A stretch of 47,296 nt of DNA from a virus (lineage: Duplodnaviria; Heunggongvirae; Uroviricota; Caudoviricetes). Positions 18,001-33,000 of the stretch are shown here, one piece after another (the stretch's first letter is position 1; each line of letters begins with the position of its first letter). Where the stretch lies: the IMG/VR virus record IMGVR_UViG_2879765931_000007. The stretch is one strand, 5' to 3'. Position numbers: made by a program.

Positions 18001-21000
18001 CACCGTAAGAGCTGGAAAAACCGTGCAGAAGTGGAACTGGCCACACTAACGTGGGTGGACTGGTATAACAATCGACGATTGCTGGAAAGGCTGGGCCACA
18101 TCCCTCCGGCAGAAGCAGAAAAAGCTTATTATGCTTCCATCGGAAACGATGATCTGGCAGCCTGAGTTCACAGATAAAACACTCTCCAGGAAACCCGGGG
18201 CGGTTCAGCCTGATGCTTCGCACTGGTCTGGGTGCCAGACAAATTGAAGCATACCGCCAGAACTGTTGGGTGGAAGGCTTCCACTTCAAACGAGTATCTC
18301 CTTTAGGGAAGCCAGACAGTAAGCGAGGGATTATCTGGTACAACTATCCGAAGATAAATCAGTTTATCAAAGACTCATGATATGTCTAAATTACCAACAG
18401 GTGTCGAGATTCGAGGTAAATACATTCGCATCTGGTTCATGTTTCGAGGAAAACGATGTCGGGAAACATTGAAAGGCTGGGAGATTACTAACAGTAACAT
18501 TAAAAAGGCCGGGAATTTAAGAGCGTTGATAGTTCATCAAATCAGTTCCGGTGGGTAATGACTCCAACTTACTGATAGTGTTTTATGTTCAGATAATGCC
18601 CGATGACCTTGTCATGCAGCTCCACCGATTTTGAGAACGACAGTGACTTCCGTACCAGCCTTGCCAGATGTTGTCTCAGATTCAGATTATGTCGCTCAAT
18701 GCGCTGAGTGTAACGCTTGCTGATAACGTGCAGCTTTCCCTTCAGGCGTGATTCATACAGCGGCCAGCCATCCGTCATCCATACCACGACCTCAAAGGCC
18801 GACAGCAGGCTCAGAAGACGCTCCAGTGTGGCCAGAGTGCGTTCACCGAAGACGTGCGCCACAACCGTCCTCCGTATCCTGTCATACGCGTAAAACAGCC
18901 AGCGCTGACGTGATTTAGCACCGACGTAGCCCCAATGTTCGTCCATTTCAGCGCAGACAATCACATCACTGCCCGGTTGTATGCGCGAGGTTACCGACTG
19001 CGGCCTGAGTTTTTTAAGTGACGTAAAACCGTGTTGAGGCCAACGCCCATAATGCGTGCACTGGCGCGACATCCGACGCCATTCATGGCCATATCAATGA
19101 TTTTCTGGTGCGTACCGGGCTGAGAGGCGGTGTAAGTGAACTGTAGTTGCCATGTTTTACGGCAATGAGAGCAGAGATAGCGCTGATGTCCGGCAGTGCT
19201 TTTGCCGTTACGCACCACGCCTTCAGTAGCGGAGCAGGAAGGACATCTGATGGAAATGGAAGCCACGCAAGCACCTTAAAATCACCATCATACACTAAAT
19301 CAGTAAGTTGGCAGCATTACCTGACCCGTTATCTAAAACAGAATTCAATGCATTAATGGAAAGTGAAAAAGGACAGAGCCAAAACTTGTGGAAATTTGCC
19401 GTTTACTCCGGGCTTCGTCACGGGGAACTGGCAGCTCTGGCGTGGGAGGATGTGGATTTCGAGAAGGGAATTGTGAATGTCAGAAGAAACCTGACGATAC
19501 TTGATATGTTCGGTCCCCCAAAAACAAATGCCGGGATCCGGACGGTAACATTACTGCAGCCGGCTCTTGAAGCACTGAAGGAGCAATACAAACTGACCGG
19601 GCATCATCGCAAAAGCGAAATCACTTTTTATCATCGGGAGTACGGCAGAACTGAAAAACAAAAACTGCATTTTGTTTTCATGCCCAGGGTGTGTAACGAA
19701 AAACAGAAACCTTATTACTCGGTAAGCAGTTTGGGTACAAGATGGAATGCAGCAGTAAAACGTGCTGGTATTCGCCGCCGTAATCCGTACCACACGCGAC
19801 ATACTTTTGCCTGCTGGCTGTTGACGGCAGGAGCGAACCCGGCATTTATAGCCAGCCAGATGGGGCATGAAACTGCGCAAATGGTGTATGAAATTTACGG
19901 TATGTGGATTGATGACATGAACGACGAACAGATAGCCATGTTGAATGCGCGGTTATCGTAGTTGCAAAGTTTGCCCCCAATTTGCCCCATTTAGTACCAG
20001 AGAACTGAAATAATGCAAGAAAATCAACAAATTACAAAGAAAGAACAATACAACCTGAACAAGTAAGGGCAAAAATCACAACTATCTGACTCATAAGTAT
20101 TTTATTTATTTTTCAATATGTTAAACATTATCAGCGACAACAATAAGCTACGATAACCCACTCTTTTTTGCCCCTTTTTTGCCCCTTATACAGCGTTTTG
20201 CCCCATTTTTGCCATCAACAATTTTCCTCATAAAGTCATTTCAAAGCCTAATAGCTGCTCTACTTTTTTCCTCAATATCATGTCGCCAGCAGGAAACAAC
20301 CTAATCCCTGTTTTAGGCCTCAAAGCTGTTAATGATAATTATTTTCATTTTGTATAGGTTATGCTATAAAACATAGCCGTTGCTATGTTTGTTCTAATTT
20401 TGCTCACTATAGGTACTAAATTATGCACTCAATAAAAAAAGTAACCATGCTCTTGGGGTGCCTCGCCCTCACCTGCTCGATCGCATTTCAGGCAAGTGCA
20501 ACTGAAAAATTCAAGGTCATTACAACATTTACCATCATCGCGGATATGGCCAAAAACGTGGCTGGAGATGCTGCAGAAGTCTCATCCATAACCAAGCCTG
20601 GTGCAGAAATTCATGAGTATCAGCCTACCCCTGGCGATATTAAACGTGCGCAGGGGGCACAACTGATTCTCGCCAATGGTATGAATCTGGAATTGTGGTT
20701 CCAACGCTTTTACCAGCATCTCAATGGGGTTCCAGAAGTAATTGTCTCTTCGGGTGTGACGCCAGTAGGGATCACCGAAGGACCCTATGAGGGCAAACCT
20801 AATCCCCATGCATGGATGTCGCCAGATAATGCTCTGATTTACGTCGATAATATTCGTGATGCGTTGATAAAATACGATCCGGCAAATGCACAAACCTACC
20901 AACGTAATGCCGATACTTATAAAGCCAAGATTACCCAAACCCTTGCCCCCCTGCGTAAGCAGATTACGGAACTCCCTGAGAATCAGCGATGGATGGTCAC

Positions 21001-30000: not shown

Positions 30001-33000
30001 CGCCTCAGTGGTCCTGACGTCTTTGACCTGTAGTTGGGCTATTTCATTGAGTCTCGCCCCAGTGATAGCAGCCAAGGCGGTAACATAATAATGATACGGC
30101 TTACCAGAGGTCTTCTGAGAGTATGCCTTAGCTGCGACCAGTAGTTGCCCCACCTGCTCCGTAGAGAAGGCGTTACGGGCCCCTGAGGCTTTACGCTGAG
30201 GGACTTTAAGCTCCAGACCCTCAGTCATGTTCTTTTTAATCAAGTCATTGCGCACAGCCCACCTAAAGACAGCAGCCATCTTAATAAGATACTTGTTGTT
30301 GATGGTAACGACATCCAGACAATCTGTCTTATCTTCACGGCTCAACAGGTCAGCAAGTGGGACATCCTTGAAGCGCTGCTTACGGTTCCTAGGTAACTGC
30401 TGGAGCACATCACGGACCCTAAGCATGTCAGCCCTGTTAGCGTCTGCATTGAGACCCAGATGGTCGAATATTTCGATTAACGCAGCGTGTGACGCCTTGT
30501 TTTCCCTTAAGGTTGCAGGCTTCCAGTTCTGATAGTTCTCCGCTTCGTATTGCTCAAAGAGGCTCGCTATGGTAATGCTAGGCGTAACTTCTGGTTTTAC
30601 TTCTGGAGCATTAACAGATAGGGACACAGAGTCTGCTTGGTTATCTTGCCTATCAATATCATTAAAAAGATCGACGTAATCTATCAGAGGCTGACTGTCT
30701 CCCGCTTCGATACGCCTCATACAGGCTTTTAGCACCTTCAGGGCCTCATTGATGTAACGATGCTGGTCAATGCTTAGCGGCTCACTAGCCAGAGCATCGG
30801 TAAGGCTCTCACCAAGTTCTCCGTATTGGTCCCGGTAGATATCCCTCATGTCAGGCTCAAAGAGATCTGAACGGCCCATAGACAGTTCACACTCAGCGAT
30901 GTCCTTAAGGTGTTCCCTCATTTCCTCGTAGGTAGCGTTGGGTCTGTCTGCGTGTATTGCCTTGAGTGCTGCCTTTATGTGCCTTGAGTAAGCCATAGCG
31001 GTGCGTCTATCCTTGGTCCGTAATGATATTGAGGTCATTCTATCTGAAGTGGCACACTGAATTTGGCCACCTGAACAGAGGTGATATGCTCACCTCAGAA
31101 CAACACAGGTGCTCCAATGAAAAAAGAAATTTTAGCGCAGAGTTTAAACGCGAATCCGCTCAACTGGTTGTTGACCAGAAATACACGGTGGCAGATGCCG
31201 CCAAAGCTATGGATGTTGGCCTTTCCACAATGACAAGATGGGTCAAACAACTGCGTGATGAGCGTCAGGGCAAAACACCAAAAGCCTCCCCCATTACCCC
31301 GGAACAAATTGAAATCCGTGAGCTCAGGAAAAAGCTACAACGCATTGAAATGGAGAATGAAATATTAAAAAAGGCTACCGCGCTCTTGATGTCAGACTCC
31401 CTGAACAGTTCTCGATAATCGGGAAACTCAGAGCGCATTATCCTGTGGTCACACTCTGCCATGTGTTCGGGGTTCATCGCAGCAGCTACAGATACTGGAA
31501 AAACCGTCCTGAAAAACCAGACGGCAGACGGGCTGTATTACGCAGTCAGGTACTTGAGCTACATGGCATCAGCCACGGTTCGGCCGGAGCAAGAAGCATC
31601 GCCACAATGGCAACCCGGAGAGGCTACCAGATGGGACGCTGGCTTGCTGGCAGGCTCATGAAAGAGCTGGGGCTGGTCAGCTGTCAGCAGCCGACTCACC
31701 GGTATAAACGTGGTGGTCATGAACATGTTGCTATCCCTAACTACCTTGAAAGGCAGTTCGCCGTGACCGAGCCAAATCAGGTGTGGTGCGGTGATGTGAC
31801 CTATATCTGGACGGGTAAGCGCTGGGCGTACCTCGCCGTTGTTCTCGACCTGTTCGCAAGAAAACCAGTGGGCTGGGCCATGTCGTTCTCGCCGGACAGC
31901 AGGCTCACCATGAAAGCGCTGGAAATGGCATGGGAAACCCGTGGTAAGCCCGGCGGGGTGATGTTCCACAGCGATCAGGGCAGTCATTATACGAGCAGGC
32001 AGTTCCGGCAGTTATTGTGGCGATACCAGATCAGACAGAGTATGAGCCGGCGCGGAAACTGCTGGGATAACAGCCCAATGGAACGCTTCTTCAGGAGTCT
32101 GAAGAACGAATGGATGCCGGTGGTGGGTTACGTAAGCTTCAGCGAGGCAGCTCACGCCATAACGGACTATATCGTTGGATATTACAGCGCACTAAGACCG
32201 CACGAATATAACGGTGGGTTACCCCCAAACGAATCGGAAAATCGATACTGGAAAAACTCTAACTCGGTGGCCAGTTTTTGTTGACCACTTCAATCATTGT
32301 TTGATTGTCTGACCCTAAGACGGAAGTAGTAGACGCCGTTACGCTGGTAGAGATAGTAGACTGCTGGAAGTTTGTGACTACTGGATAGCTGAATCATATG
32401 TCTGTATGCCCTGAGAGGGTTACACAGTGGGTTACAGTAAGTAACTCTGCAAGGAGGCTTAAAGCCGTATCCCTTAGGATTCAGTAGGTTGGAGTACTTT
32501 AAGAAAGGTCATGGAGCGGGCAGCGGGAATCGAACCCGCATCATCAGCTTGGAAGGCTGAGGTAATAGCCATTATACGATGCCCGCATATGGTGCCGACT
32601 ACCGGAATCGAACTGGTGACCTACTGATTACAAGTCAGTTGCTCTGCCTGCTGAGCTAAGTCGGCGCTGGCCCACCACCGAGGACTCGAACCTCGCACCG
32701 TCAACTTAGAAGGTTGATGCTCTATCCGGATGAGCTAGTGGTGGTTGGTGGCCCTTGCTGGACTTGAACCAGCGACCTGGCGATTATGAGTCGCTCGCTC
32801 TGACCAACTGAGCTAAAGGGCCGGAGGCAGAATAATAACCATATGTCATCACATCTGCAAACTCATCTGACCACCAGCGCGTTTAACGCCCTGTGCCATT
32901 TTTCAGGCACAAAAAAACCCGCATAAAGCGGGTTCTTTCAAGTGTCCATGTCTGCTATTCGCCTCGCGATACAGCTTTGCGAAGCTTACCGGAATTGAAG

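Follow-up and report, generated by a model that had tools for sequence, protein, structure and literature searches.

Shigella flexneri has three partly redundant systems for the uptake of iron and manganese, one of which, encoded by the operon sitABCD, contributes to the intracellular fitness and virulence of this pathogen. We examined this operon and its surroundings in a stretch of DNA of 47,296 nucleotides (hereafter the window; IMG/VR virus record IMGVR_UViG_2879765931_000007, Caudoviricetes), of which positions 1526-43591 are 100% identical to S. flexneri CP026871.1 (GCA_002950195.1), as seen in three independently fetched loci. The intact operon (20423-23872, plus strand), whose products are a ZnuA-type binding protein, an ABC ATPase and a pair of ABC-3 permeases, is surrounded by prophage remnants and by insertion sequences (IS), the latter accounting for 36.7% of the window. 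This segment forms the core of the S. flexneri sit island ('PAI sit'), whose instability is already known. Taking all observations together, it is highly probable that the IS copies of this core arrived singly and in place, and that the direct repeats they form recombine to delete the DNA between them.

Insertion sequences around sitABCD

The IS map was built from a self-BLAST of the window and a repeat finder, and the elements were named from annotated matches. For comparison, five protein look-ups supplied loci from approximately 32 S. flexneri genomes, as well as from S. boydii and E. coli, and every locus was mapped onto the window. The window contains 15 IS copies and a 61-bp IS911 end fragment (7310-7370). 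IS600 (1264 bp) starts at 490, 2040, 12955, 26777 (949 bp only) and 33541, with an inverted copy at 45597; IS911 (1248-1249 bp) starts at 14470 (copy a) and 31045 (copy b), with an inverted copy c at 35237; IS1 (768 bp) starts at 18554 (copy i) and 27726 (copy ii), with an inverted copy iii at 37899; IS2 (1334 bp) starts at 9288 and 43813; and an IS629-like copy occupies 16902-18207 on the plus strand.

A previous reading based on the sequence alone (the sequence-only reading) had drawn attention to two same-orientation pairs around sit: IS1 i and ii, both on the minus strand and bracketing 19322-27725, and IS911 a and b, both on the plus strand and bracketing 15718-31044. The self-BLAST coordinates and the strands of insA/insB and of orfB, respectively, agree with this description, and the content reported between the copies is correct, namely an integrase fragment, the intact sitABCD and degraded tail-fibre genes. 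The interval between IS911 a and b also contains the IS629-like element, which had gone unmentioned. These two pairs are not the only direct repeats that bracket sit. Ten such pairs were found by self-BLAST, made up of IS600 (three copies on the left by two on the right), IS911, IS1, IS2 (9288/43813) and a 712-bp direct duplication of tail-fibre sequence with one copy on either side of the operon (6134-6845 and 24103-24814). The IS1 and IS911 pairs are not chance matches, as their members are 99.6-99.9% identical over 0.77-1.25 kb; that the members of any given IS pair share an orientation is in itself a 50:50 outcome.

Both members of the IS1 pair are full length. IS1 i (18554-19321, minus strand) has terminal repeats and intact insA and insB frames, and IS1 ii (27726-28493, minus strand) lies between a truncated IS600 and a truncated Rha gene. 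The DDE_Tnp_IS1 domain, insA/insB and the terminal inverted repeats place them in the IS1 family. Over 768 bp they differ at 3 positions, and the longest stretch without a mismatch measures 261 bp. Neither IS1 i nor IS1 ii is flanked by a 9-bp duplication, and IS1 iii has TACTAACAG. The outer flanks of the pair are different from each other, with GTTCCGGTG in the 9 bp to the left of copy i and CGCGTTAAG in the 9 bp to the right of copy ii; those of the IS911 pair also differ (CTG to the left of a, ATC to the right of b), in agreement with the earlier statement that no composite target duplication is present.

The left member of the IS1 pair interrupts intR, a Rac-type integrase gene that follows a DUF1233 excisionase-like gene (18213-18380, plus strand). 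The first 57 codons of intR, which starts with MSKLPTGVEIRG, lie at 18382-18553 (plus strand), and the last ~213 codons, with a Pfam Phage_integrase domain, lie at 19322-19961 (plus strand) in an open reading frame (ORF) listed as 19308-19961, the start of which falls within IS1 i. The region 18213-18553 is 94.8% identical to positions 22449-22794 of the E. coli O121 prophage locus, and the 3´ side of intR is 98.7% identical to positions 23217-23959; the alignment also shows that 422 bp of intR are missing at IS1 i. Because the N-terminus of the integrase is encoded outside the IS1 pair and its C-terminus inside, this DNA was contiguous before IS1 arrived, which argues against delivery of the IS1-bounded unit as a transposon. 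The junctions of IS1 i are identical in every S. flexneri locus that covers the site, except in LR213452.1, whose site is deleted.

On the right-hand side, IS1 ii had been described as inserted inside IS600 copy 4 (26777-27725, minus strand), a view that the sequence beyond IS1 ii contradicts. This IS600, which comprises bp 1-949 in the window register, with orfB on the minus strand and the orfA end missing, stops at bp 949, and the remaining 315 bp are absent. No 14-mer of the 400 bp downstream of IS1 ii was found to match IS600; a truncated phage Rha gene lies there instead. The position of IS1 ii is therefore that of a truncation rather than of a nested insertion, and DNA adjoining it appears to have been lost, as at IS1 i. 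The same layout of truncated IS600 copy 4 and IS1 ii is present in the other sampled genomes, apart from those with a fused full-length IS600 (see below).

IS911 a (14470-15717, plus strand) lies between gam and the AAA_24 gene and is 99.0% identical to an annotated 'IS3-like element IS911 family', whereas IS911 b (31045-32292, plus strand) lies on the far side of sit; the two differ by 1 mismatch over 1248 bp. Their length of ~1250 bp, TG...CA ends, orfA/orfB and 3-bp duplications are those of IS911. Each copy has a private duplication (CTG for a, ATC for b, CGG for c), and empty sites are found elsewhere: for copy a with a single CTG in both CP182555.1 and the E. coli O121 prophage, and as precise empty sites for copy c in CP182555.1 and for copy b in CP034931.1. 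Owing to these duplications and empty sites, all three copies can be regarded as simple insertions in place. Among the sampled genomes, copies b and c occur only in CP026871.1, and look-ups of the 498-amino-acid truncated integrase at IS911 b and of the 194-amino-acid chimeric Q-like protein at IS911 c gave no matches on record.

IS911 a and b also share a 1-bp deletion, with A6 instead of A7 right after the orfA start codon ATG (near 14541 and 31116), whereas A7 is kept in IS911 c and in the IS911 a of all 13 other genome loci checked. Given this frameshift at the start of orfA, the two copies may not be autonomous. Either copy b is a recent local daughter of the mutated copy a, mobilised by the transposase of another copy, or the shared A6 reflects gene conversion or a homopolymer sequencing error at both sites.

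Structural variation among S. flexneri genomes

The approximately 32 S. flexneri genomes include at least ten distinct structural variants, and almost every large difference ends at an IS copy. A structurally invariant segment, with no junctions formed by recombination between IS copies, was the outcome that the sequence-only reading had named as incompatible with its proposal; the segment is instead variable and contains such junctions. A conserved core consists of IS1 i, the integrase fragment, sit, the tail-fibre genes and the left junction of IS600 copy 4, and in the sampled S. flexneri genomes the sit unit is always at one place.

Two classes of deletion carry the signature of a crossover between resident IS copies. 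In CP182555.1, CP034060.1 and CP182548.1, a single full-length IS600 joins position 26776 to position 34805, with the flanks TAC and CTG. As this fused IS600 has no duplication, and IS600 copy 5 (33541-34804, minus strand) has CTG on both sides, the junction is the product of a deletion between copies 4 and 5, which removed 6,764 bp from the block neighbouring sit. At least two independent events are probable, because IS911 a is present in only one of these three genomes and absent from the other two. The reverse polarity, with the fused IS600 as the ancestral state, was ruled out by the perfect CTG duplication of copy 5 and is also contradicted by an intact E. coli prophage in which 32512-32666 lies beside 36489.

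The second class removes sit itself. LR213452.1, from isolate AUSMDU00008355 (recovered in 2016 from the stool of a symptomatic patient and reported to be closest to serotype 1c (7a) outbreak strains), has the order recE, IS600 copy 3, 14219-14469, IS911, 32325-33540 and IS600 copy 5. The left junction of its IS911 is base-for-base that of copy a, and the right junction is base-for-base that of an insertion found in CP097828.1 and CP130061.1, designated b', in which IS911 stands between 29961 and 32325. This b' copy has the same orientation as IS911 a and lies on the far side of sit. The LR213452.1 locus is devoid of DNA equivalent to 16541-29961, including sitABCD, and has one IS911 at the junction. 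Together with the deletions between IS600 copies 4 and 5, this single-IS911 junction bears out the earlier proposal that the direct IS repeats are substrates for deletion.

The same locus of LR213452.1 (positions 1-7000) contains a second large IS-bounded loss, as an IS1 joins the manXYZ-yobD region straight to window position 8120, and 1-8119, including ipaH and pphA', is absent.

Other variants affect the left-hand side of the segment. The presence of IS911 a is lineage-dependent, with some lineages carrying it and others not. The 823 bp to the right of IS911 a are lost in four genomes, so that copy a is followed by position 16541; CP130061.1 has lost 7371-16540, between the tip of the 61-bp IS911 fragment and IS911 a; and CP102230.1 shows an IS2-adjacent loss of 10622-16071, which places IS2 next to 16072. 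Additional IS911 copies are found in other strains after 7682, 16856, 29040 and 30921, as well as within IS600 copy 3 or IS2. In S. flexneri, expansion and continuing activity have been shown for IS1, IS2, IS4, IS600 and IS911 (Hawkey et al., PMC7373316), which fits the scatter of IS911 sites among strains.

The 61-bp fragment itself is an inverted IS911 left end (8268-8328 in comparison locus L018), and the base to which its tip is joined in CP130061.1 is the same 16541 that follows IS911 a in the four genomes mentioned above. This coincidence suggests either a crossover in the short terminal-repeat homology or a transposase-mediated event. In CAJFAY010000003.1, the Q-like/nin segment is joined at ~34905, via an IS91-family element, to the chromosomal genes ycjT-ompG-ycjW-ycjX, which stand where IS600 copy 5 and the sit side would be expected; this junction suggests that a large rearrangement took place or that the host lineage differs.

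The operon and its prophage setting

SitA to SitD have 304, 275, 285 and 285 amino acids, the lengths of the annotated E. coli SitABCD, and the DNA is 98-99% identical; ZnuA, ABC_tran and two ABC-3 domains are found over the four ORFs. IS1 i lies 1.1 kb upstream of sitA, and the sit promoter region is intact, including, at ~20329-20391, the sequences TAATGATAATTATTTTCATT and AAACATAGCcgttGCTATGTTT, which we take from the respective consensus sequences to be Fur-like and MntR-like boxes. About 240 bp upstream of sitA there is also a tandem repeat (20163-20187; 2.3 copies of the 11-bp unit CTTTTTTGCCC), and a short indel in the stretch at ~20184-20195 distinguishes other lineages.

Rac-type prophages of E. 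coli that lie between uspF and ttcA carry sitABCD as cargo at one of their ends. The order in E. coli O121 is uspF, sitABCD, tail-fibre genes and, further on, recE, gam, an AAA ATPase gene, xis, intR and ttcA, whereas in the window recE, gam, the AAA ATPase gene, xis and the integrase fragment are followed directly by sitABCD and the tail-fibre genes. Segments 14219-14469, 15718-16901, 18208-18553 and 19320-20062 are collinear with the E. coli O121 prophage at 95-99.6% identity. The match on the integrase side ends at 20062 and the E. coli uspF-sitA matches begin at 20020. This overlap of ~43 bp (20020-20062), judged from these alignments, may represent an attP-like junction between int and sit, as would be expected from tandem prophages or from circularly permuted integration. 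An integrase fragment beside sitA is also found in some E. coli strains, such as E. coli H22, consistent with former tandem prophages.

Downstream of sit, a degraded tail-fibre module on the minus strand (24073-26776) comprises a DUF4376 gene, a frameshifted tail-fibre gene, an assembly gene and an ORF of 122 amino acids cut by IS600; the degraded genes span 24073-26792 and show DUF4376, phage_tail_N and Caudo_TAP domains. The module is collinear with that of an intact prophage of E. coli CFSAN029787. Beyond IS1 ii, the remnant 28494-31044 contains the Rha gene fragment (to 28658, minus strand) and a tyrosine integrase gene (29542-31038, minus strand), whose product has 534 amino acids in other strains and has here lost its N-terminus to IS911 b. 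The remainder of the window holds remnants of other prophages, among them this second tyrosine integrase, Rha, an ORF6N gene with the start codon TTG and a Q-like/nin region, together with an ipaH gene.

With its phage genes (integrase, tail-fibre, Rha, recE and gam) and numerous IS copies, the segment has the composition of PAI sit, and its origin is the decayed end of a Rac-type prophage that was joined to other prophage remnants and colonised by IS1, IS2, IS600, IS629 and IS911. Compared with the E. coli Rac-type sit prophages at ttcA/uspF (NZ_CP119441.1 and NZ_CP011416.1), it has the same gam, AAA, xis, int, sitABCD and tail-fibre genes in the same order, with 95-99.6% identity. However, the E. 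coli prophages are largely IS-free and lie between uspF and ttcA, whereas the window has lost the structural genes, joins int to sit via the putative attP-like junction, and has yebV-yebW (Pfam DUF1480/DUF1482) next to the left end of the cluster.

Neighbouring elements

IS600 copy 3 (12955-14218, minus strand) truncates recE and is another of the direct repeats on the left of sit. A 3-bp duplication is absent both at this copy (flanks CTG/GAG) and at copy 6 (45597-46860; AAG/GGA); an inversion between the two was considered as the cause, but their flanks do not fit. The 12 bases directly to the left of copy 3 (12942-12954), TGAGGTAGCCTG, match an inverted IS600 terminus, hinting at an older IS600 remnant. 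At the recE site of CP182555.1, IS600 shares only 96% identity with the reference copy, compared with at least 99.4% in the others, which suggests that it was replaced or converted by a divergent IS600 variant.

The IS629-like copy belongs to the IS3 family and is 98.5% identical to an annotated 'IS3 family transposase | AL1L pseudoknot'. It has a degenerate orfB and no target duplication, and ~350 bp of prophage DNA are missing beside it. The neighbouring AAA_24 ATPase gene (15770-16930, plus strand; Pfam AAA_24), which is collinear with positions 20929-22098 of the E. coli O121 prophage locus, has an altered 3´ end that runs into this element. Only in CP012735.1, a group II intron is present inside the IS629-like copy (locus positions 7211-9471), encoding a protein of 502 amino acids with reverse transcriptase and maturase domains.

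The ipaH gene (4209-5924, plus strand) lies in the same IS-dense prophage cluster and encodes an IpaH-family effector of 571 amino acids, whose LRR_TTSS and NEL domains are those marked by Pfam in the identical genes of three comparison loci (L018, L024 and L035). IS600 and IS1 copies on both of its sides put ipaH at the same deletion risk.

Discussion

The anatomy of the segment, the in-place insertions and the variant junctions in other genomes were observed directly in this study. On the proposed course of events, the IS copies would have come one by one and in place, without delivering sit, and some of them would later have taken part in local deletions, which would account for the truncation or the missing duplication of IS1 i, IS1 ii, the IS629-like copy and IS600 copy 4. 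Homologous recombination between any same-orientation pair around sit would then excise the DNA between the two copies as a circle, which would be lost. The predicted deletions are 9,172 bp for IS1 i with ii and 16,575 bp for IS911 a with b, and the same substrates could give tandem duplications by unequal exchange, although no amplification was seen in an analysis that did not test for it. Ordinary homologous recombination between direct repeats is the best-supported process; the crossovers would depend on RecA, and selection presumably maintains sit where it is otherwise kept. Transposase-driven adjacent deletions probably contribute too, since several variants end at one IS tip and four IS copies of the window are truncated or have no duplication.

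It has to be considered whether sit was brought or moved by a composite transposon, either a Tn9-like IS1-sit-IS1 unit or the IS911-bounded unit of 16.6 kb. Direct IS1 pairs are able to form transposons, Tn9 being an example. Both the IS1 and the IS911 pair consist of two full-length copies with intact outer ends around the cargo, the IS1 copies retain open frames for insA and insB as well as their terminal repeats, and sit is found in E. coli at several chromosomal sites and on plasmids. However, neither pair has a shared outer target duplication; IS1 i splits intR in place, so that flank and cargo were formerly contiguous; IS911 a and b have separate duplications and empty sites, with b private to one genome and both copies frameshifted at the start of orfA; and sit occupies one site with the same junctions in the sampled S. 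flexneri genomes and resides in IS-free prophages in E. coli. A composite transposon is thus extremely unlikely, and the split intR, the separate IS911 insertions and the single location argue against the transposon-like movement suggested by the sequence-only reading having taken place. The likeness to Tn9, in which cargo also lies between two full-length direct IS1 copies, is one of layout only, as the sit unit has no composite 9-bp duplication, one of its IS1 copies interrupts a gene in place, and it occurs at a single site. Equally hard to accept is the opposite view, that nested pairs in the same orientation simply follow, without consequence, from a high IS density in an effectively stable segment. 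Agreement in orientation is a coin toss, there are hundreds of IS copies per S. flexneri chromosome, and IS1 i and ii occur together, with no fixed deletion, in almost all of the sampled genomes. Such stability is nevertheless refuted by at least ten structural variants and two classes of deletion between IS copies, one of which removes sit.

A more serious alternative, albeit an unlikely one, is that transposase action, either through intramolecular transposition or through a second insertion close by and subsequent loss, produced the variants in the main, and not general homologous recombination between resident copies. Several variants do end at one IS tip with unique DNA beyond (IS2 next to 16072, IS911 a next to 16541 in four genomes, and the IS911 tip next to 16541 in CP130061.1), IS1 i, IS1 ii and the IS629-like copy have no duplications and have lost adjacent DNA, and the sites of IS911 insertion are spread over the region and vary between strains. 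In contrast, the junctions of the IS600 copy 4 and 5 deletions and of LR213452.1 pair the known left and right flanks of resident copies, which is what a crossover leaves behind, and the literature puts deletions of the island down to homologous recombination, although both routes can coexist. We consider it very unlikely that loss of sit by crossover between IS copies is a recurrent and perhaps selected event in particular circulating S. flexneri lineages, with the IS pairs acting as a switch to shed or amplify metal uptake as the bacteria adapt to the host.

Several points weigh against homologous recombination between resident repeats as the full account. The approximately 32 genomes were those picked by the look-up tool and are not a population survey, and the sit-less junction comes from a single long-read assembly in which the loss was seen at the level of the locus. 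No product of IS1 i with ii was found among these genomes, though both copies are present in nearly all of them, and the exact product of IS911 a with b was not found either, copy b being private to CP026871.1; the junctions of any such product would be identical to existing junctions. The a with b product of CP026871.1 is not seen in LR213452.1, because b' is not the same insertion as b, which stands between 31044 and 32293. Dependence on RecA is a point from the literature rather than from this analysis, and transposase action explains the IS2-adjacent loss in CP102230.1, the 823-bp loss and the loss of 7371-16540 in CP130061.1 equally well.

The deletion-prone behaviour of the sit island is already known and was published in 2009. 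An unstable sit island with deletions by homologous recombination was described by Fisher et al. 2009 (Infect Immun 77:1992), as summarised in PMC7545054. According to that summary, PAI sit has sitABCD among phage-derived genes and many IS copies, is unstable, and is accompanied by retention of sit in nearly all clinical isolates. The window differs from it in nothing essential, as it is the island in CP026871.1. The present analysis adds the IS anatomy at base level, two IS911 copies (b and c) private to this strain, and, in LR213452.1, a natural product of IS911 with IS911 that lacks sit. The deletions are reportedly dependent on RecA and fairly frequent, and all clinical isolates tested are said to have kept sit.

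A comparable case is the loss of the type III secretion island of pINV (PMC5629016), where recombination between IS copies in the same orientation likewise deletes a costly or dispensable virulence block. However, that loss takes place on a plasmid, is frequent in the laboratory and has a visible phenotype, whereas the sit island is chromosomal and its loss is rare among isolates. Since IS-driven erosion of Shigella islands, including this one, is already established, no new principle emerges from the present work. Knowing which repeat pairs can remove sit nonetheless helps to interpret sit-negative isolates, and it aids the design of stable vaccine and laboratory strains as well as the judgement of long-read assemblies of this repeat-dense region.

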